A stretch of DNA of 64,000 nt from Eledone cirrhosa (lineage: Eukaryota): NCBI GenBank assembly GCA_964016885.1, contig OZ024741.1:26784001-26848000 (forward strand), read 5' to 3'. A model generated the notes under the pieces. It was not told the DNA's origin. It saw only the letters and a list, made by a program, of their open reading frames with translations, and searched no databases. Shown one piece after another: positions 4,010 to 60,913 of this stretch; position 1 is the first letter of the stretch; each line of letters opens with the position of its first letter. A program made the position numbers and the translations under genes.

Positions 4010-4270
4010 TGGAGGCACATGGCTTAGTGGTTAGAGCATTGGCCTTGTAATCGAAAGGTTGTGAGTTCAATTCTCAGACCGTGAGATGTGTTGTTTCCTT
4101 GAGCAAGACACTTTATTTCACATTGCTCCAGTTCACTCAGTTGTAGAAATGAGATGATAGGGACTGGGGTCCATATCATTCCACTGCAAAGTGGTTGTGG
4201 AGGTGCCACGGCAAAAAAAGCATCCAGCACTCACTGTAAATGAGGTTGGTGTTAGGAAGGGCATGGTGTT
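4010..4270 (+). mobile_element. tRNA-derived SINE family 1 with RTE-like 3' portion
   Basis: A box TGGCTTAGTGG, B box GAGTTCAATTC, core CCTTGAGCAAGACACTTTATTTCACATTGCTCCAG, then sequence shared with the RTE 3' UTR at 61270-61385. Confidence 0.85.
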
Positions 4271-6971: not shown

Positions 6972-6984
6972 ACTGTGCTTTGTA

Positions 6985-7203
6985 CAGTGAGTGCTGGGTG
7001 CTTTTTTGCCGTGGCGCCTACACGCCCACTTTACAGTGGAATGATAGCGAACCCAGTCCTATCATCTCACTTCTACAGCTGAGTAAACTGGAGCAATGTG
7101 AAATAAAGTGTCTTGCTCAAGGAAACAACACATCACACGGTCTGAGAATTGAACTCACAGCCTTTCAATTGCAAGCCCAATGCTCTAACCACTAAGCCAT
7201 GTG

Positions 7204-7206
<3 letters not shown>
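6985..7206 (-). mobile_element. SINE family 1
   Basis: Reverse complement of the 4010 copy. Confidence 0.85.
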
Positions 7207-7299
<93 letters not shown>

Positions 7300-7353: not shown

Positions 7354-7763
7354 TGAAGGCGCATGGCTTAGTGGTTAGAGCATTGGGCTTGCAATCAAAA
7401 GTTTGTGAGTTCAATTCTCGGACTGGGTGATTTGTTGTTTCCTTGAGCAAGGCACTTTATTTCACATTGCTCGAGTTTACCCAGCTGTAGAAATGAGATG
7501 TGGTCGTGGAGGTGCCACGGCAAAAAAGCACCCAGCCCACACTGTAAAGTGGACGTGTAGGCGCCACGGAAAAAAAGCACCCAGTACTCACTGTAAATGA
7601 AGTTGGTGTTAGGAAGGGCATTCAGATGTAGAAATCAAGCCAGAATCAGTTCCCGTATGAGCAAGACAAGGTCAGCCGACCGGACACTGCCCTCAACAGG
7701 ACAACCCATCTAACCCATGCTAGTGTCGAAGAACGGCTGTAAAACGGTGATGATGATGATGAT
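7354..7763 (+). mobile_element. Full-length SINE family 1 with RTE-derived tail ending (GAT)n
   Basis: tRNA-like head and core, then a 3' region near-identical to the RTE 3' ends at 13345-13556 and 61270-61530. Confidence 0.88.
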
Positions 7764-10214: not shown

Positions 10215-10660
10215 AGGAAGTTATAGTTCACTTGAAGCATTGTGTAATGAGGTATAAACGTTTGTATTTGTAAAGCCAAAACAATGCAGGTATGGATATA
10301 GAATATAAATGCAAATGCAAAAGATATTGTTGACAATTAGTCTTTTACCTTAAATTTATTTAAATATCCTTAATTTTTGAGATAATATCTCTTCTTCGGA
10401 GGGAAGTAAAGTTGTTAAACCAACGTTCTAAATAGCTTGCCAAGTCATACCATTTCCTGTCAGCATGACTTGGCAAGCTATTTAGAACGCTGGTTTAACA
10501 ACTTAACTTCCCTTCAAAGAAGAGATATTATCTCTAAAATTAAGGATATTTAAATAAATTTAAGGTAAAAGACTAATTGTCAACAATATCTTTTGCATTT
10601 GCATTTATATTCTATATCCATACCTGCATTGTTTTGGCTTTACAAATACAAACGTTTATA
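10213..10660. mobile_element. Fold-back element: 196-bp inverted arms plus a 40-bp one-sided tail, in (TA)n; probable Penelope-like insertion
   Basis: Arms 10253-10448 and 10465-10660 are reverse complements with about 5 mismatches; 16-nt spacer; TA tracts on both sides. Confidence 0.8.
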
Positions 10661-10668
10661 TATATATA

Positions 10669-10835
10669 CAATGATATTAAATAAATGGAAACTATATTTA
10701 TAAAACCATATTTATTTTATTATATATATTTCAAGGGTACCAAGACACATTGGTACGCTTTCATCAGATAAAACACAAAGTTTGTTTTAAAAATAGAGTC
10801 ATACAACAAAAATAATAATGATTTTTTTTGTAAGG
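10669..10835 (-). mobile_element. Penelope-like 3' terminus (family 1)
   Basis: Homologous to 37676-37840 and to the reverse complement of 60750-60912; contains a hammerhead. Confidence 0.8.
10715..10773 (-). ncRNA. Type I hammerhead ribozyme (family 1)
   Basis: UUUUAU-CUGAUGA-AAG(C)GUACCAA-UGUGUC-UUGGUAC(C)CUU-GAAA-UAUAUA-UA|AUAAAA: complete core and all three stems. Confidence 0.88.
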
Positions 10836-21094: not shown

Positions 21095-21539
21095 TTATAT
21101 ATATATAAATAAATATATATATATATATATATTTCTCATCATCAACATCATCATTTAATCTTCATTTTCCATGCTCGCATGGGTAGGGCAGGCTATCCCT
21201 TTGTAAGAGATCAAGCCGGAGCACTGTTTTGCTCATACAGAGCTGATTTTGGCTTGGTTTCTACTGCTGGATGCCCTTCCATGCCTCCCCATGCCTATAT
21301 ATATATATATCATCATTTTTCATCATCATCATTTCATTTTACGTCCGCTTTATCCCTGCTTGCAAGGGTGGGACGGGAACTGATTCTGGCTTGATTTCTA
21401 CAGCTGGATGCCCTTCCTAACACCAACCACATTTACAGTGAGTGCTGGGTGGTTTTTGCCGTGGCACCTCCACGACCACTTTGCAGTGGAATGATATGGA
21501 CCCCAGGCCCTATCATCTCATTTCTACAGCTGAGTAAAC

Positions 21540-21589
<50 letters not shown>

Positions 21590-28601: not shown

Positions 28602-28824
28602 TTTCTATCGATCGACTTTCGTCAAATCGGACCGAGGAAACAATGTTTCCGTTGGTCTTTCCAGTTGCTAATACTATCTATCGGTCGCAACTCCAGGTAG
28701 AAGGAGCAACGTGAAATAAAGTGCCTTGCTCAAGGACATAACGCATCGCCCAGTCCAGGAATCGAACTCACAACCTCAAGATTGTGAATCCAATTCTCTA
28801 ACCACTCAGCCACACGCCTTCACC
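28602..28824 (-). mobile_element. SINE (family-1 head, alternative tail) with 12-bp TSD
   Basis: TSD AGAGTTATATAT at 28590-28601 and 28825-28836. A box TGGCTGAGTGG, B box GAGTTCGATTCC. Tail also seen at about 1485-1650. Confidence 0.88.
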
Positions 28825-28865
28825 AGAGTTATATATAGTCACATTATAATGATACTAATAATAAT

Positions 28866-29995: not shown

Positions 29996-30003
29996 ATTTT
30001 ATA

Positions 30004-31204
30004 CTGAAGTCTCTTACTGTGTATAGTCACTGGAGTCTCTTACTGTGTATAGTCACTGGAGTCTCTTACTGTGTATAGTCACTGGAGTCTCTTACTGTGT
30101 ATAGTCACTGGAGTCTCTTACTGTGTATAGTCACTGAAGTCTCTTACTGTGTATAGTCACTGGAGTCTCTTACTGTGTATAGTCACTGAAGTCTCTTACT
30201 GTGTATAGTCACTGGAGTCTCTTACTGTGTATAGTCACTGAAGTCTCTTACTGTGTATAGTCACTGGAGTCTCTTACTGTGTATAGTCACTGGAGTCTCT
30301 TACTGTGTATAGTCACTGAAGTCTCTTACTGTGTATAGTCACTGGAGTCTCTTACTGTGTATAGTCACTGAAGTCTCTTACTGTGTATAGTCACTGGAGT
30401 CTCTTACTGTGTATAGTCACTGAAGTCTCTTACTGTGTATAGTCACTGAAGTCTCTTACTGTGTATAGTCACTGGAGTCTCTTACTGTGTATAGTCACTG
30501 AAGTCTCTTACTGTGTATAGTCACTGGAGTCTCTTACTGTGTATAGTCACTGAAGTCTCTTACTGTGTATAGTCACTGGAGTCTCTTACTGTGTATAGTC
30601 ACTGGAGTCTCTTACTGTGTATAGTCACTGGAGTCTCTTACTGTGTATAGTCACTGGAGTCTCTTACTGTGTATAGTCACTGGAGTCTCTTACTGTGTAT
30701 AGTCACTGAAGTATCTTACTGTGTATAGTCACTGGAGTCTCTTACTGTGTATAGTCACTGGAGTCTCTTACTGTGTATAGTCACTGGAGTCTCTTACTGT
30801 GTATAGTCACTGGAGTCTCTTACTGTGTATAGTCACTGAAGTCTCTTACTGTGTATAGTCACTGGAGTCTCTTACTGTGTATAGTCACTGGAGTCTCTTA
30901 CTGTGTATAGTCACTGAAGTCTCTTACTGTGTATAGTCACTGGAGTCTCTTACTGTGTATAGTCACTGAAGTCTCTTACTGTGTATAGTCACTGGAGTCT
31001 CTTACTGTGTATAGTCACTGGAGTCTCTTACTGTGTATAGTCACTGAAGTCTCTTACTGTGTATAGTCACTGGAGTCTCTTACTGTGTATAGTCACTGAA
31101 GTCTCTTACTGTGTATAGTCACTGGAGTCTCTTACTGTGTATAGTCACTGGAGTCTCTTACTGTGTATAGTCACTGGAGTCTCTTACTGTGTATAGTCAC
31201 TGAA
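30004..31204. repeat. 26-bp minisatellite, about 46 highly homogeneous copies
   Basis: Unit CTGRAGTCTCTTACTGTGTATAGTCA. Confidence 0.97.
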
Positions 31205-32378
31205 ATCTGTTGATGTTGCATATAGTCACATTATATATACTGGAGTCTTTTACTGCATATAGTCACATTATACATACTGGAGTCTGTTGTTGGTGTATAT
31301 AGTCACATTATACATACTGGAGTCTGTTGGTGTTGTATATAGTCACATTATATATACTGGAGTCTCCGTTGGTGTATATAGTCACATTATACTTACTGGA
31401 GTCTCTAATGGTGTTGTATATAGTCACATTAAACAAACTCGAGTCTCTGTTGGTGTATATAGTCACATTATACATACTGGAGTCTCTGTTGTTGGTGTAT
31501 ATAGTCACATTATACATACTGGAGTCTCTGTTGTTGGTGTATATAGTCACATTATACATACTGGAGTCTCTGTTGGTGTTGTATATAGTCACATTATATA
31601 TACTGGGGTCTCTGTTGGTGTATATAGTCACATTAAACAAACTCGAGTCTCTGTTGGTGTATATAGTCACATTATACATACTGGAGTCTCTGTTGTTGGT
31701 GTATATAGTCACATTATACATACTGGAGTCTCTGTTGTTGGTGTATATAGTCACATTATACATACTGGAGTCTCTGTTGGTGTTGTATATAGTCACATTA
31801 TATATACTGGGGTCTCTGTTGGTGTATATAGTCACATTATACATACTGGGGTCTCTAATGGTGTTGTATATAGTCACATTAAACATACTGGAGTCTGTTG
31901 TTGGTGTATATAGTCACATTATACATACTGAACTCTCTTATTGTGTATAGTCACATTATACACACTGGAGTCTCTGTTGGTGTTGTATGTAGTCACATTA
32001 AACATACTGGAGTCTCTGTTGGTGTATATAGTCACATTATACATACTGGAGTCTCTGTTGTTGGTGTATATAGTCACATTATACATACTGGAGTCTCTGT
32101 TGGTGTATATAGTCACATTATACATACTGGAGTCTCTGTTGGTGTATATAGTCACATTATACATACTGGAGTCTCTGTTGATGTATATAGTCACATTATA
32201 TATACTGGAGTCTCTGTTGGTGTATATAGTCACATTATACATACTGGAGTCTCTGTTGGTGTTGTATATAGTCACATTAAACATACTGGAGTCTGTTGTT
32301 GGTGTATATAGTCACATTATACATACTGAACTCTCTTACTGTGTATAGTCACATTATACACACTGGAGTATCTGTTGG
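31205..32378. repeat. 39-44-bp minisatellite related to the 26-mer
   Basis: Unit ATAGTCACATTATACATACTGGAGTCTCTGTTGGTGTAT with indel variants. Confidence 0.96.
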
Positions 32379-32706
32379 TGCAACTCAGTATCAAACTGGT
32401 AGTACATAATTGTAAAGCAAGTTACTTAACCACACTGCTATGTCTGCACCATCTTATAATTTTTTTACTCGCCATCTCCATATATCCTATATCTATCCAA
32501 TCAACATTTGCAGACTACATCTATTTGTTCAGCCTGTATCAACACACATTGATTATCTTACAGGTCAACATGTGATCCCTCTATTCATCTAACATGTTAA
32601 CATCTACACACATCTATACAATGTTTACACACATCTATACATTGTTTATACAAATTTGCAAATGTGTATGAGTTTGTATAACTTCGTCTGCCCACAGTGT
32701 ACAAAT

Positions 32707-34492: not shown

Positions 34493-35892
34493 TCTAATCC
34501 TTGAATGTCTATCTGATGGAACTCTCTTCCTTCCTCTTTCTCTGATAGTTACAATCTTAATTCTTTAAAATCCACTGATAAACATTTTCTGATTTCAAGA
34601 GCAGTGCCAACCCTTCGTAGCAGGGAGAGTGGACGTTAAAATGATGGTGATGATGATGATGAGGAGGATGATGGTGATGATGGTGTCTTATTGTTTTTCT
34701 TTTCTTTTGAAACTCCCAACAAATTAAAGCTTTGGTTAAGACCAATCATATTAGAGCCCTGGCTATAACCAATCAAATTTAGCCTCTGCTTGGACCAATA
34801 AATTAATGAAGGTGTATTAAGATCTTGAGTTTGATTCCTGAGTCAGTTGTAACATTGTGTCCTTAAGAAAGACGTTTCTTATCACAATCCTCCAATCCAT
34901 TCAACTGAAGAAAACTTAACATCTTCAGCAGCTGGTTTTGCCTTAGTAATTTGTGCTCTTACTAGTAAGACTCAAATATAATGACAGGTGTTGAGTGTAT
35001 CTAGTTTAGAATAGGTACACCATATTTTTGCAATAAAAGAGTTGATGCCAGGAAGAGCCTCCAGCTGTAAAACATTACCTCCAAACGGACCACATAATGA
35101 ACATGAAACCTGTTCTATGCTGGCATGGGTTGGACGAATCACCATGGAACAAGACTAGATAAATTTGGCTTAATTTCTATGGCTGGATGCTCTTCCTAAT
35201 GCCAACCACTTTACAGAGTGTATTGAGTTCATTTTATCTCGACCTAACTTGGTAGGTTTTAATTTAAATATGAAGAGGTTTTCTCATAGAACTAGAGACA
35301 AATTCAAGTAGTAGAGTGTGGTTTGACAGAGATTTGGCTGCTATTTCTAGCAGTTCAGCAAACTAATTAACGAGCTCTTCCATTGGCTTGAAATATTGTT
35401 ACTGATTTCATCTTCTACTCTACTGTGACAACACTTTATTGATAACATAATAGTTATGGAAGTTCAATATTGAAACCAAATCATAAAACATCAAAGCTCT
35501 GTATAATTCTATGGTTGTCACCAGAGAAACTAGTAAATGGTTTTTATGATCAATGACTTCAACTTGCAGAGAGGGACCTTATTGTATCCTAGATAATTGA
35601 TTTAGATGGGAGCTCTCAAGTAGAACAACTGTGATACTAATAAAATCTAATGTTATTAGTGTTGTTTAGCCCTAGGTCTCTCCTGATTGTATAGACATAT
35701 GATCAATGGTTTTCCAGTCATGATCAACCCATCTTTTTGCAGGGAAGGAGGTACAGGCAATGTTTATCTAAGACTACATTATCTAATGTGTCCTTAATTT
35801 TTTGAAAAACCCTTGTGGTATCAACTTACCTGATACCACATCTACATATCTGAGAGGATATATGTTTAATTGAACTTTTACAAAGGAATTGT

Positions 35893-36232
35893 AAAGGTGC
35901 TTGGCTTAGTGGTTAGAATGTCGGGCTTACAATTATGAGGTTGTGAGTTCGATTCTCGGACCGGGCTTTGCATTATATTCTTGAGCAAGACACTTTATTT
36001 CTTGTTGCTCCAGTTCACTCAGCTGTAGAAATGAGTTACAATGTAGCTAGTCTCAAGTTGTATCAGCCATTGCCTTTCCTTTGGACAATATTGGTGGCAT
36101 GGAGAGGGGAGACTGGTATGTATGGGTGACTGTTGATCTTCCACAAACAACCTTACCCAGACTTATACCTCGGAGGAGGAATTTCTTGAGTGTAAATCCC
36201 ATCATCATTCGTGACTGAAGGGGGTCTTTAAC
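35893..36232 (+). mobile_element. SINE, family-1 head/core with a third tail type
   Basis: TGGCTTAGTGG, GAGTTCGATTC and the family-1 core, followed by a 3' region unrelated to the 7354 or 28602 copies. Confidence 0.8.
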
Positions 36233-37230
36233 GTTACAAAGGAATTAATTTTCAAATTATAAAGAATCTGATTAGATGTTTATTTAAGAGATTAAAATAT
36301 TTTTCAGTAAATGATTGCTGTTATCTTAATTTACTGAAACTAAAAATAAAATTTAAAGATCAAATTTAAAAACTCAAAAATATTACCAAATTTCTTCATC
36401 TTCAGATCATAACCAAATTCTTGCAGGCTTGTATATGAACCCATAATTGTGAATAATTATGAAATATAATATATCACTTACAATTAATTATAATTAATAA
36501 TCATATCACAATACATAATTACATTACAGATAATTTGTGCTGATATTTATATATATCGGCGACGAATTGGTAGAGTTGTTAGAAAACTTTACAGTATTCA
36601 TTCCAACACTCTGCTCTCTGAGTTCAAATCCCATCAAGGTCAACTTTGCCTTTCATCCTTCTGAGATCAATAAAAGAAGTACCAGTCTAATACTGGGTTC
36701 AATTCTTCCTCTATATCTCTTTCTCACTTTCTTTCTCCCACTTTCTATCCTTCTCTGCAAGAAATCTGCTGTACTCAGGCCTGGAGAGGGATGGGCTCCA
36801 CCAGGCTTAAAATGCCCAAGAAACGCTGTATGTCAATACGGCGCCACTAGAATTCTATCAGGAGTTACGAGACAAAGAAAATTTATATATATAAATATAT
36901 TTATCATCATCACTGTTTAACGTCCATTTTTCCATGCTGTCATGGGTTAGACGAGTTATCCTGTTGTAAGCAATGCCAGATCAGGTGACCATGTCTTGCT
37001 TATACAAAACCGATGTATATATATATATATATATATTCAGGTTTGAGGTTCACCACTGTATAGAGCTGGTCTATTGCGTATGGTCAATCGTAATGTAATA
37101 ATATGGAGAGTACTCAACGTAAAGCAGTTCAACCGTCTTTGTTTTTGTAGTTGGTGGTGCTATTACGGAGTTAAATATTATAATGAAATGACAGGAGGCT
37201 GGATTTGTGTAAATCCTTGAAAGGTTTATT

Positions 37231-37288
37231 ATACTATGATCATTTCAATGACCGGGTTCCGTATGAATCCGGTGATATCATCAGGTAT
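37231..37288 (-). ncRNA. Type I hammerhead ribozyme (family 2), left arm
   Basis: Mirror image of 37453-37510. Confidence 0.78.
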
Positions 37289-37452
37289 TCAAAATATAAT
37301 ACGTGAATGTAATAGATAAAATCCATGGGGCTGAAAATCGAGGACCCGAGGGCGACCGCTATTCTGCTCCTTCAACCTCAGCCGGTCGCCCTCGGGTCCT
37401 CGATTTTCAGCCCCATGGATTTTATCTATTACATTCACGTATTATATTTCGA

Positions 37453-37510
37453 ATACCTGATGATATCACCGGATTCATACGGAACCCGGTCATTGAAATG
37501 ATCATAGTAT
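37453..37510 (+). ncRNA. Type I hammerhead ribozyme (family 2), right arm
   Basis: AUAC-CUGAUGA-UAU(C)ACCGG..CCGGU(C)AUU-GAAA-UGAUCA-UA|GUAU. Confidence 0.8.
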
Positions 37511-37719
37511 AATAAACCTTTCAAGGATTTACACAAATCCAGCCTCCTGTCATTTCATTATAATTATATATATATATATATATAAACAATCAGTTATTTA
37601 ATTTGTTGGTTATTCAACAAATTTAGTTTATAACAGATTAGAAGCACTCTACAGAATTCTTCTGGAGTATTATATCAATAATATTAATAAATGGAAACTA
37701 TCTTTATAAAACCATATTT

Positions 37720-37780
37720 ATTTTATTATATATATTTCAAGGGTACCAACATTTTTTGGTACGCTCTCATCAGATAAAAT
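37720..37780 (-). ncRNA. Type I hammerhead ribozyme (family 1)
   Basis: AUUUUAU-CUGAUGA-GAG(C)GUACCAA-AAAAUG-UUGGUAC(C)CUU-GAAA-UAUAUA-UA|AUAAAAU. Confidence 0.88.
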
Positions 37781-38944
37781 ATATAAGTTGTTTTACAGAT
37801 AGTGACATATTCAAAACAAGAACTTATCGTTTTGAGTTCTGTTTGAATAGTGAAAAAGAATTTCAAATCATAGGATGAATATGCTAATGAGGGTAACGTT
37901 AAAATTGAAAAAGATCATTATATTTAGACGCTAGGTAAATTTAAATAATTATTAGGATTATTTTTTAAGGGAAGAGGAGATAGAGGTTATTATTAGGGTA
38001 AGGAAAGAATATAAGAAAAAAGTATATTAGAGTTAAAAATAGACTATTAATATATGTATATAAATTGTATGGAGCATATTTGTGAGGGTGTAGAGAGAGT
38101 AAAATAATCATATTTAATTATTTAATTATTTAATTATATATTTTGGGAGTATCTATAATATAATGTGAGAATTATAAATGTGTTAAAGTGAGAGAATATT
38201 AATTTAAAAAGTATTGTATTCATATATATGATTTAATATTATAAACATAGTTTTTTTTAATAGATAGATAATTTCAATATTTTTTATATGTGAAGAGTTA
38301 TGATAAATTTTTGTTTACATTTTCAATATATGTTTTAAGAAAATGGAAGTAGTTCTATTTTATTATAGAAGATTATTTTGTATATTCAATAATTGCATCA
38401 AGATAGGAATAAATTTACAAAATTTTAATAAATTTTAATATTTATGTAAAGTTTAGCTGTTATATAATCAAAAATGTGTAAGCGTGTTACATTTCAAAGG
38501 GAACGATAACTCTAAAATTTCATCGTTAAAATAGTTAAGTTATATTTACCGCTTATTCTAGAATTTACTTTAAAAAACATTCTAATAATGATATATGGAA
38601 AAATTATTTTATATATGATTTTATAGTATCATATATTACATACTTTCTAAGATAAAAATGTTTATATATGTATTTTGATACCATTCCTTATATCTATGCA
38701 TAGGTTAATGATTTTAAGTATTTATATGTAAGGATTTACAATGCCTATAGAGTCTATTAGGAAGAAATTCTACAGACATCCAACGTATATTCAAAAACAT
38801 CATTGCAGCCATCACAAAAAAAAAGTACATTCAAAAATATCATTTAAAAAACATCACAAAAACACCTACAAAGCACGGCGAAGACATATAAAATGTAAAC
38901 AGGTGAGATATAGAGGCTATAAATAATATTTTGTATAGATTAAA

Positions 38945-39240
38945 GATGCTTCCAAAAGTCTTAGACTGACGATGTCTGCAGAAGTTAAATATTTATTTCT
39001 TTTTATTTATAGTGTTTTTTTTTTATTGGTAACTATGTGAAATATTTCTTGAATACATAAATGACAAATTCTTGAGAGCCATATTTCGGTATGCGGGCGC
39101 TTTCGAAATCGTTTCCCAAGAGATTGAATAGTCAATATTATTGTCTTTTGAGTACCAGATTAGATGTGAAAGTGATGTTGAGAATTTTTTGTCTGATCTA
39201 TTAAATGTATGTTTGTGATTATACCAGCGTTCCTTAAATC
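38945..39240 (-). pseudogene. C-terminal GIY-YIG endonuclease remnant of a Penelope-like element (frameshifted)
   Basis: FKERWYNHKHTF..STSLSHLIWYSKDNNIDYSISWETISKAPAYRN / SRICHLCIQEIFHI / INKK / FCRHR. Not in the ORF track. Confidence 0.85.
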
Positions 39241-39268
39241 TTACTCTACTACTACTTATATATATATA

Positions 39269-39530
39269 TCTATCTATCTAGGGCGGGTAAAATTCCTGAG
39301 ATCCATGGACGAGTTCTCTCCAGCGGTCTCTGTCCCTCATTATCGCTGCCATGTCCTGCGTCTCCAACAGACCAGTGTCTGTCCTTAGGGCATCAACATA
39401 CGTTAACCTTGGTCTTCCTCTTCCATTGTGTCCATGTAGGGGCTCCCACAGGAGCACTGAGTGCAATGTCAACTCCTGATGTCGGTGAGCATGTCCAGCT
39501 AACCTCAGTCTCTGTGTCACACCACACACC
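39269..39530 (-). mobile_element. 5'-truncated RTE-type LINE (RLAGH family) with (TAGA)n tail and 15-bp TSD
   Basis: RLRLAGHAHRH..VLLWEP..RGRPRLTYVD; TSD ACTTATATATATATA at 39254-39268 and 39531-39545. Confidence 0.88.
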
Positions 39531-47194: not shown

Positions 47195-48400
47195 ACTTTA
47201 TACCTGTTGTGAGATGTGAAAATGTCACACAACTGCTACCTGGTCACTGATGCATATTTTATACCTGTTGTGAGATGTGATATATATTTTATACCAGTGT
47301 GATATGTGATATTTTATACCTGTGTGATATGTGATATTTTATACCAGTGTGAGATGTGATATTTTATACCAGTGTGATATGTGATATTTTATACCAGTGT
47401 GAGATGTGATATTTTATATCTGTTGTGATATGTGATATTCTATACCAGTATGAGATGTGATATTTTATACCTGTTGTGAGATGTGATATACTATACCTGT
47501 GTGATATGTGATATTTTATACCAGTATGAGATGTGATATGTTATACCTGTTGTGAGATGTGATATACTATACCTGTTGTAGATGTGATATTTTATACCTG
47601 TGTGATATGTGATATTTTATACCAGTATGAGATGTGATATTTTATACCTGTGTGATATGTGATATTTTATACCAGTATGATATGTGATATTTTATACCTG
47701 TTGTGATATGTGATATTCTATACCTGTGTGAGATGTGATATTTTATACCTGTTGTGATATGTGATATTTTATACCAGTGTGAGATGTGATATTTTATACC
47801 AGTGTGAGATGTGATATTTTATACCAGTGTGAGATGTGATATTTTATACCAGTGTGAGATGTGATATTTTATATCTGTTGTAGATGTGATATTTTATACC
47901 TGTTGTGATATGTGATATTTTATACCAGTGTGAGATGTGATATTCTATACCAGTATGATATGTGATATTTTATATCAGTGTGAGATGTGATATTTTATAC
48001 CTGTTGTGATATGTGATATTTTATACCAGTGTGAGATGTGATATTCTATATCTGTTGTAGATGTGATATTTTATACCTGTTGTGATATGTGATATTTTAT
48101 ACCAGTGTGAGATGTGATATTCTATACCTGTTGTAGATGTGGATATTTTATACCTGTTGTGATATGTGATATTCTATACCAGTTGTAGATGTGATATTTT
48201 ATACCTGTTGTGATATGTGATATTCTATACCAGTGTGAGATGTGATATTCTATACCTGTTGTAGATGTGATATTTTATACCTGTTGTGATATGTCATATT
48301 TTATACCAGTGTGATATGTGATATTTTATACCTGTTGTGATATGTGATATTTTATACCTGTTGTAGATGTGATATATACTTTATACTTGTTGAGAAATGT
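47195..48400. repeat. 25-26-bp minisatellite
   Basis: Unit TATTTTATACC(AG/TGT)TGTGA(G/T)ATGTGA. Confidence 0.95.
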
Positions 48401-56399: not shown

Positions 56400-56925
56400 A
56401 ACACTGTATCATCACAATCTTCTCTCTTGCACACTGCATCTGATTCCTCTAATGCCCAGTTTGTCTCTCATTCTTGCTTCAGTATTCATCCACATTAATA
56501 TTATCTATCCAAAGGATCATGCTTTCTCTCAACCCTTTCCATATCTACTGCAACATCACACTTCTCACAGAGGGTCATATAATCTACCCTTCACACTAAC
56601 AGTGAATTCCTTTATTACCAACATAAGAAGTAGCTCCTCACACTTCTCACACAGAGGGTCATATAATCTACCCTTCACACTAACAGTGAATTCCTTTATT
56701 ACCAACATAAGAAGTAGCTCCTCACACTTCTCACAGAGGGTCATATAATCTACCCTTCACACTAACAGTGAATTCCTTTATTACCAACGTAAGAAGTAGC
56801 TCCTCACACTTCTCACAGAGGGTCATATAATCTACCCTTCACACTAACAGTGAATTCCTTTATTACCAACATAAGAAGTAGCTCCCCAAACGTTTTCCAT
56901 CCTCATATTCTAGCTATTATGCTAT
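56400..56925 (-). mobile_element. Old RTE fragment with internal 4x tandem amplification (82-84 bp, 56557-56885)
   Basis: Unit translates on minus strand as RELLLMLVIKEFTVSVKGRLYD; flanks give WKTFGEL and KLGIRGIRCSVQERRL. Confidence 0.8.
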
Positions 56926-58964: not shown

Positions 58965-59500
58965 GTTAACCCATAATTTACTGTAGTTGACAGTGGAAAA
59001 TATTAAAGTTAACCCATAATTTACAGTATTTGACAGAAGGGATTATTAAGGTTAACCCATAGTTGACAGTGGGGAATATTAAAGTTAATCCTTTATTTAC
59101 AGTAGTTGACAGTGGGGAATATTAAAGTTAATCCTTTATTTACTGTAGTTGACAGTGGGGAATATTAAAGTTAACCCTTTATTTACAGTAGTTGACAGTG
59201 GGGAATATTAAAGTTAACCCTTTATTTACTGTAGTTGACAGTGGGGAATATTAAAGTTAACCCTTTATTTACAGTAGTTGACAGTGGGGAATATTAAAGT
59301 TAACCCTTTATTTACTGTAGTTGACAGTGGGGAATATTAAAGTTAACCCTTTATTTACAGTAGTTGACAGTGGGGAATATTAAAGTTAACCCTTTATTTA
59401 CAGTAGTTGACAGTGGGGAATATTAAAGTTAACCCTTTATTTACAGTAGTTGACAGTGGGGAATATTAAAGTTAACCCTTTATTTACAGTAGTTGACAGT
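58965..59500. repeat. 43-bp minisatellite, about 12 copies
   Basis: Unit GTTAACCCTTTATTTACAGTAGTTGACAGTGGGGAATATTAAA. Confidence 0.95.
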
Positions 59501-60729: not shown

Positions 60730-60913
60730 CAAATCAACTTTTTAAATGGAAGTTGCATTATTTATAAGGTATGTCAAAAATTATTTATAAAACAGCTTAT
60801 GTATTGTATTTTGTCTGAGGAAGGCATACCATATTTTTAATATGATATCCCTGAAATATATATAACGAAATAAATATGGTTTTATAAATATAGTTTCCAT
60901 TTGTTTAATATCG
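60730..60913 (+). mobile_element. Penelope-like 3' terminus (family 1, diverged) between (TA)n tracts
   Basis: Tail TAAATATGGTTTTATAAATATAGTTTCCATTT is shared with the 10669 and 37676 copies. Confidence 0.82.
60809..60870 (+). ncRNA. Type I hammerhead ribozyme (family 1 variant)
   Basis: UUUUGU-CUGAGGA-AGG(C)AUA(C)CAUAUU-UUU-AAUAUG(A)UAU(C)CCU-GAAA-UAUAUA-UA|ACGAAA. Confidence 0.87.

Follow-up and report, generated by a model that had tools for sequence, protein, structure and literature searches.

Hammerhead motifs in the terminal repeat of a Hydra-clade Penelope-like retrotransposon of Eledone cirrhosa probably act in pairs

The window analyzed here, a 64,000-nucleotide stretch of the Eledone cirrhosa genome, contains three hammerhead motifs, copy 1 at 10715..10773 (-), copy 2 at 37720..37780 (-) and copy 3 at 60809..60870 (+), at the positions and on the strands that a sequence-only reading of this DNA had given for them. 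As that reading had claimed, all three carry CUGANGA (C3-A9) and GAAA (G12-A15.1) and complete the type I core with U16.1 and an H17 that is A, the last base of its AUA triplet. The cut is predicted between 10721 and 10720 for copy 1, in agreement with the minus-strand site proposed earlier, between 37727 and 37726 for copy 2 and between 60864 and 60865 for copy 3. Copies 1 and 2 have the stem I sequence UUUUAU/AUAAAA, whereas copy 3 has UUUUGU/ACGAAA; the base of stem II is AAG/CUU (copy 1), GAG/CUU (copy 2) or AGG/CCU (copy 3), and the six nucleotides UAUAUA lie between A15.1 and U16.1 in every copy, all as previously described. The compensatory changes reported among the three copies amount to three true double changes (pairs 1.2, 10.2 and 10.5) and two wobble changes. 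The earlier description did not include the C·C mismatch that invariably follows the third stem II pair, the extension of stem I, the host element or two further hammerheads of a sister family. The canonical G10.1-C11.1 pair was missing in all three copies, with A-U or G·U in its place.

Homology between the copies was extensive, with 130-140 nt of sequence in common (E 1e-31 to 1e-42). The suggested comparison with Rfam gave a negative result, as no hammerhead family matched the window at E<=5 or copy 2 at E<=10. Copy 1 scored 80 bits with our own hammerhead model, of which it is itself a training row. The bare pattern CTGANGA-N(8-30)-GAAA occurred four times in the 64-kb window against 2.5 expected, which is not above chance, and it misses copy 3 because stem II of this copy spans 31 nt. 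The predicted fold of copy 3 was no better than those of shuffled sequences (z -0.07 to -0.37). We nevertheless regard the three motifs as confirmed type I hammerheads at the level of sequence, an identification that rests on homology and on the covariation detailed below.

Each motif is part of a 5'-truncated copy of a Hydra-type Penelope-like element (PLE). The fragment with copy 1 (10669..10818, (-)) has its short 3' end (10669) in a TA run and its 5' limit at about 10804-10818, relatives matching from query position 83-97 on. The element with copy 2 (37585..39258, (-)) comprises the end of the ORF, an AT-rich 3' UTR of ~1.15 kb, the hammerhead and a tail, with TA runs on both sides, and loci L002, L028 and L030 are homologous to it along the whole stretch. 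Its coding part is a broken C-terminal endonuclease (38936..39258, (-)), open in frame to 39023 and followed by stops and shifted frames, with 65% identity over 111 residues to the ORF of L062; copy 2 is located 1.2 kb downstream of it. The tail (37585..37676, (-)), bounded by the short 3' end at ~37676 and the tailed one at ~37585, contains hairpin A (ACUC...UA-GAGU-GCU; 37643..37668, (-)), ~7 nt behind the short end, as well as hairpin B (UUUGUUG/CAACAAA; 37602..37621, (-)). The fragment with copy 3 (60730..60913, (+)) has a short 3' end at 60913 and TA-rich flanks. Among the best 40 of 781 candidates scored for its subfamily, 24 other loci were 100% identical over 150-151 nt, and the endonuclease of the subfamily gave 150 scored matches at 96-100%; by these identities, copy 3 belongs to a very young subfamily. 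All three window copies are 5'-truncated, lone insertions, and therefore none of them can form a dimer in cis.

Related and unrelated repeats surround these insertions. A palindrome beside copy 2 (37177-37564) is a head-to-head pair of a sister family with UGAUCA in loop III. Its tailed arm carries a hammerhead at 37225..37294 (-), in which the C·C is kept and behind which the tail extends to ~37037, and its short-ended arm carries another at 37447..37516 (+); no ORF linked to this sister family was found in the loci examined. Similarly, the palindrome beside copy 1 (10253-10660) consists of two head-to-head arms, which belong to a third family. The hammerhead of this family is of the minimal kind, with an additional base following A9, a G10.1-C11.1 pair and AAUU as its palindrome; its core is decayed in both window arms and intact in two copies in L041. 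Different TA-targeting elements are stacked at the same TA runs (10657-10668, 37566-37584 and 39259-39270), and the same neighbours recur beside L017. The window further contains a dispersed repeat family with tRNA-like heads (4010-4264, 6983-7229, 7354-7621, 21408-21540, 28703-28837 and 35890-36035), likely tRNA-derived SINEs, with Rfam tRNA matches at 28-30 bits (4020-4077, 7134-7202 and 7362-7425), as well as well-kept minisatellite arrays (1-928, 30003-32380, 47254-48375, 56556-56885 and 58965-59500) with units of 40, 26 and 42, 25, 82 and 43 nt.

The complete architecture of the host element was apparent at the intact locus L135, which consists of a hammerhead, a leader, an ORF of 741 residues, a 1.3-kb 3' UTR and a second hammerhead 3,724 nt from the first. 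Full-length copies carry the motif both ~200 nt ahead of the start codon and ~1.3 kb past the stop codon, and the same-strand hammerhead pairs that flank the ORF in L135, L141, L143, L150 and L275, 3,676-3,857 nt apart, represent both pLTRs. A hammerhead region was present downstream on the same strand at 20 of 30 endonuclease loci, the window's own included, within flanks of 1.5 kb. A conserved GTATGT, or GTACGT in part of the subfamilies, is located ~45 nt upstream of the core (L135:4303-4312; 60768-60773 in the window) and has the look of a splice donor. An intron in the pLTR is a known feature of PLEs.

A Pfam search with the ORFs gave no informative match and a PDB sequence search gave no match. 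The homolog search returned 11 mostly unnamed proteins of 28-38% identity, eight of them with PF26215, and the Atlas clusters nearest to the ORF carry HTH_animal, GIY-YIG and RVT_1. Closer examination of the L135 ORF revealed the motifs YRDD, RWR and SDKT (DKT in place of DKG), a CxCx5C linker (CNCRDRSKC) and an endonuclease with CDLC (CxxC) and CRH (CxH) around conserved E and N residues, in which CCHH is absent and a single Cys is located between two endonuclease motifs. Insertions of the element target (TA)n. The marks of the Hydra clade given in the accessible parts of PMC8557442 are an RWK-like N-terminal motif, DKT, a CxCx5C linker, the absence of CCHH and insertion into (TA)n, and a comparison with the published Hydra proteins, made motif by motif and by eye, assigns the host to the Hydra clade by these motifs. 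A length below 3 kb is usual, not defining, for the clade in the same source; the unit here reaches 3.7 kb because its 3' UTR spans 1.3 kb. An assignment to the Neptune clade was rejected, as the published clade definitions overturned it: both the CX2-5CxxC linker and the CCHH motif are absent. Membership in the non-LTR retrozymes was rejected as well, with no tandem array at the copies and the copies linked to an ORF.

Across the 3.0-Gb genome, the core combined with AUAUAUAU had 48,134 matches against 120 for the reversed pattern, and a tight pattern with the C·C fixed and the loop centre free had 82,140 against 13 in the control. For the analysis of pairing, 31 natural copies were hand-picked from 321 distinct contexts in 56 clusters, leaving out truncated, junction-cut and near-duplicate rows and one chance-like row. 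Counted from the fixed core, 144/155 cells were paired in stem I (pairs 1-5), 82/93 in the base of stem II and 164/186 in upper stem II, and none of 5,000 shuffles reached these counts in any of the three stems; the aligned copies are related, so the shuffle tests overstate independence and the pairing figures are not probabilities. With the three window copies added (34 rows), double changes were observed at 14 of 14 stem pairs, and 90.5% of the cells were paired, compared with 68.3% after shuffling and 28-54% in slid registers. Thirteen of the 28 inner branches in the tree of the copies are open. Covariation in this larger alignment, which the sequence-only reading had proposed as a check, thus supports an open stem I and a closed stem II.

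Stem II consists of three base pairs, the C·C and a further 6-9 base pairs. The mismatch at 10.4·11.4 was C·C in 31 of 31 representatives, although the pattern that selected them did not require it, while G10.1-C11.1 was present in only 10. The extra base between A9 and 10.1 that marks the minimal type was absent, the register without it pairing best and the slid registers reaching no more than the 28-54% given above. Among 52 copies picked by protein match and not by their core, the core positions were conserved in 48-52 and N7 varied. Together with the covariation of stems I and II across subfamilies, this upholds the earlier proposal that selection acts on RNA structure in the source elements. 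A decayed remnant without a function today, simply passed on with the element, is a barely credible reading of the motif: the lack of an Rfam match and the non-canonical 10.1-11.1 pair would fit such a history, but the covariation spans all 14 pairs between subfamilies with unlike flanks and the core is intact in the youngest subfamily.

In a young and abundant branch (L158, L135 and relatives; 8 of the 52 protein-picked copies), A·A takes the place of the 10.1-11.1 pair at the foot of stem II. This mismatch may make cleavage less efficient and still allow the branch to spread.

The short stem III is predicted to be unstable within one molecule, as A15.1-U16.1 had a predicted pairing probability of 0.0001-0.004 and forcing the stem costs 2.9-3.5 kcal/mol. 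Among the first 100 matches listed, counted by eye, loop III was UAUAUA in 50, UAUGUA in 23, UGAUCA in 15, UGUGCA and UACGUA in two each, UGUAUA in one and other sequences in seven; it was self-complementary through its two central bases in 93, with five to six different palindromes, and had a U·U centre in three. In a second set of 100 matches listed, counted by eye, UAUGUA, with a U·G centre, occurred 38 times, all within a few subfamilies, and UACAUA, its reverse complement with a C·A centre, not once. Neutral DNA change would not favour one over the other. As a monomer offers the two central bases no partner, this difference points to pairing between two copies. The duplexes predicted for AUAUAUAU (-3.2 kcal/mol) and AUAUGUAU (-2.2 kcal/mol) are weak, the latter being the weaker of the two and lacking the full register in the predicted fold. 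Overall, the loop III pattern is the palindromic one of dimer-type PLE hammerheads and favours cleavage as a dimer, a design already published. The dimer-type PLE hammerhead suggested by the sequence-only reading has accordingly gained a Penelope-like host and a loop III self-complementary through its centre, with the cleavage itself a prediction from sequence.

An alternative is cleavage as a monomer, its shape held by the protein of the element or by a tertiary contact of the C·C, the palindrome reflecting nothing but two stem III pairs and AT-richness. Both A15.1-U16.1 and U15.2-A16.2 can pair within one molecule, the element is rich in TA and targets TA, and a hammerhead from the anole lizard cut only once protein was added (PMC11167929). 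We consider this alternative quite unlikely, as the two central bases, which have no partner in a monomer, change together (UA, AU, CG and UG), UAUGUA is seen without UACAUA, and the monomer stem has to be forced at the energetic cost given above.

The ends of the insertions followed a strict pattern. The 49 nt that follow the cut had 1,034 exact matches, the first 100 of which were read out; of these, 49 ended at 49 nt behind the cut (short), 50 continued with a tail of ~92 nt more (tailed), three of these into the leader, and one ended elsewhere. All 31 head-to-head pairs combined one short with one tailed arm, the tailed arm continuing into the leader in one pair, while the 38 unpaired copies were divided evenly into 19 short and 19 tailed ones. 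In 44 further pairs, representing 11 sequence types, 38 were short plus tailed and one probably so, four had one arm unclassed, a single tailed arm faced a leader-bearing arm, and short-short pairs numbered zero. The five distinct full-length loci all ended in the tailed form, one of them with a shortened tail.

The predicted cut, on the other hand, left no genomic footprint among the 5' and 3' ends of the copies examined. Only 29 copies ended at the cut compared with 12,571 running through it (0.2%). An accumulation of 5' ends, as cut RNA might produce, was likewise rejected: none of 100 copies began at the cut and three began within 9 nt of it, whereas ~3.5 would be expected there, given that 49 had their 5' end within 138 nt. 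Extension values above ~180 nt, which are stopped by indels, were not used. Copies that neither begin nor end at the cut fit a circular or tandem RNA template.

The 29 copies (L285-L313) that terminate precisely at the predicted cut, in a TA run, form a minor third class of 3' ends, 27 of them without resuming within 1.5 kb. They could be taken to mean that insertion is primed by the 3' end that cleavage creates in AUAUAUAUA, through pairing with the (TA)n target, the more so as the main families have the target repeat itself as their loop III. As the main route this is largely refuted by their small share and altogether very improbable; the sister families keep the (TA)n target despite their UGAUCA loop, and short-homology deletion or mispriming accounts for the few copies concerned. 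The copy at L146:4243-4415 has its 5' end at the tailed start site, directly before the twin of hairpin A described below, and is possibly exactly one unit long.

Both regular 3' ends are followed by a similar structure. The short end is followed after 7 nt by hairpin A (RCUC...NN-GAGY-RCU) and the tailed end after 7-8 nt by its twin, A', which is part of the leader, differs by an A-U to G-C change and was seen in nine distinct contexts including one distant family. Hairpin A' is present in full-length copies and absent from the window. A long helix joins the tail to the leader, with double changes in two pairs among nine related rows and z values of -1.6 to -3.8. A' and the closing strand of this helix are located only before the ORF, and tailed copies nevertheless reach back into the ORF upstream; if A' sets the tailed start, the template would therefore be circular or tandem. 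Tandem units do exist (L196 and L197). Alternatively, the tailed end may simply be inherited from the TA flank of the source copy. In the accessible sequences of PMC8557442, a hairpin of the same shape is readable by eye in Hydra-2_Amil and Hydra-2_Ajap, in both of which it lies at the 3' end, and in Hydra-1_Crog, in which it lies at the 5' start.

With insertions neither starting nor stopping at the cut, the fold could be kept mainly as a scaffold for RNA pairing and protein binding, the palindrome joining two templates for the priming of both target strands and cleavage being rare or incidental. The pair at the base of stem II, weak or broken in young copies, and the invariant C·C, which looks like a contact site, are in line with this, as are the hammerhead mutants of the anole element, which had no effect on insertion (PMC11167929). 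A mere scaffold, however, need not keep every catalytic position while N7 varies, and the end pairing can be explained without an RNA dimer by twin hairpins on one RNA; Naiads, moreover, produce inverted insertions without a canonical hammerhead according to the accessible text of PMC8557442. Taken together, this explanation appears unlikely.

We consider it probable that the hammerheads in the terminal repeat of this PLE cleave only when paired and excise the unit RNA, and that two starts set by hairpins give rise to the head-to-head arms. As a hammerhead lies before the start codon and another behind the stop codon, a read-through RNA carries two of them 3.7 kb apart. Their loop III palindromes would form a shared stem III of eight base pairs, with cleavage occurring only as a pair and likely helped by the protein of the element, and the pair would cut out an RNA of unit length, the ends of which would likely be sealed to a circle unless uncut tandem RNA is used. 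Reverse transcription would then have two fixed start sites, one 49 and the other ~141 nt past the cut. Both precede a copy of the twin hairpin (A and A', respectively), likely bound by protein, by 7-8 nt. One start would likely be primed from each strand of the nicked (TA)n target, resulting in head-to-head arms of which one is short and one tailed. The three window copies would be truncated, passive products of this insertion process. A more far-reaching version, in which paired C·C-variant hammerheads cut out and circularise the unit RNA, a protein dimer on the two hairpins starts reverse transcription at two sites of one RNA, using one strand of the (TA)n target for each, and the hairpin is common to the Hydra clade, is offered only tentatively and is rather doubtful; if true, it would account jointly for the pseudo-LTR, the tail and the head-to-head arms.

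PLEs carrying dimer-type hammerheads are already known, and their bare observation is ordinary. The use of the hammerhead to the element and the origin of tails, pseudo-LTRs and inverted arms are, however, named as open questions in PMC11167929 and in the accessible parts of PMC8557442. This genome offers more than 80,000 copies, many subfamilies and intact young ORFs, from which three sharp and testable rules emerge: loop III pairs through its centre, the C·C never changes, and an inverted insertion uses both start sites, each of them beside a twin hairpin. A young intact copy could serve for in vitro reconstitution of the dimer, the circle and the hairpins. New here are the invariant C·C of stem II, the two fixed 3' ends, each near a twin hairpin, and the short-plus-tailed rule. 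A literature search, with subscription papers, figures and preprint supplements outside its scope, gave no publication that describes a stem II with C·C, a twin hairpin or a strict end-pairing rule, although Lunse et al. 2016, whose dimer hammerheads are considered here through the accessible parts of the reviews PMC6765202 and PMC6466107, may describe the C·C.

The closest relatives are the hammerheads of the Hydra clade as far as they are described in the accessible parts of PMC8557442. These likewise lie near the 3' end of a PLE with C-terminal endonuclease inserted in (TA)n, with CUGANGA, GAAA and a short self-complementary stem III, and the tails in this clade are often found at one end only. 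Their stem II is fully paired over 3-7 bp with no C·C, in contrast to the mismatch observed here, and their stem III reads ACNN-1-2 nt-NNGU, compared with the 8-nt palindrome AUNNNNAU. Hydra-1_Obim (2.5 kb), the sole octopus family given there, has a hammerhead unlike the present one. Besides the unit of 3.7 kb, the tail of ~92 nt also differs from the 30-40 nt of published Hydra elements.

The dimer-type PLE hammerheads of PMC4209133, for which the accessible text reports a location in pLTRs, a proposal of circles and low activity in vitro, share with those studied here this location, the type I topology, a long stem II and an unstable palindromic stem III, as well as the occurrence of many divergent families per genome, most copies being lone and truncated. 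Unlike the minimal type of that source, the motifs analyzed here have no extra base between A9 and 10.1 and no conserved G10.1-C11.1; their palindrome is longer than its 0-4 nt, and the invariant C·C is absent from its Fig. S3 alignment.

PAc, a Poseidon PLE of the green anole (PMC11167929), resembles the present element in two internal start sites that define the tail, an AT-rich target, the extension of both strands and a hammerhead upstream of the start sites. It differs in having the hammerhead and the start sites within the ORF and in its short tail, and the main text of that paper describes neither a twin hairpin nor a strict short-plus-tailed pairing per insertion. In the same study, insertion in vitro was unchanged by hammerhead mutants, no reads ended at the cut, and the hammerhead was protein-assisted.

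Non-LTR retrozymes, as far as the accessible parts of PMC7229834 and bioRxiv 10.64898/2026.07.22.740005 describe them, also combine type I hammerheads at very high copy number (up to 120,000 in the axolotl) with circular RNA intermediates. Their repeats, however, are non-coding, arranged in tandem and 150-450 bp long, each with a single hammerhead, whereas the hammerheads described here are carried by dispersed 3' fragments of a coding element.
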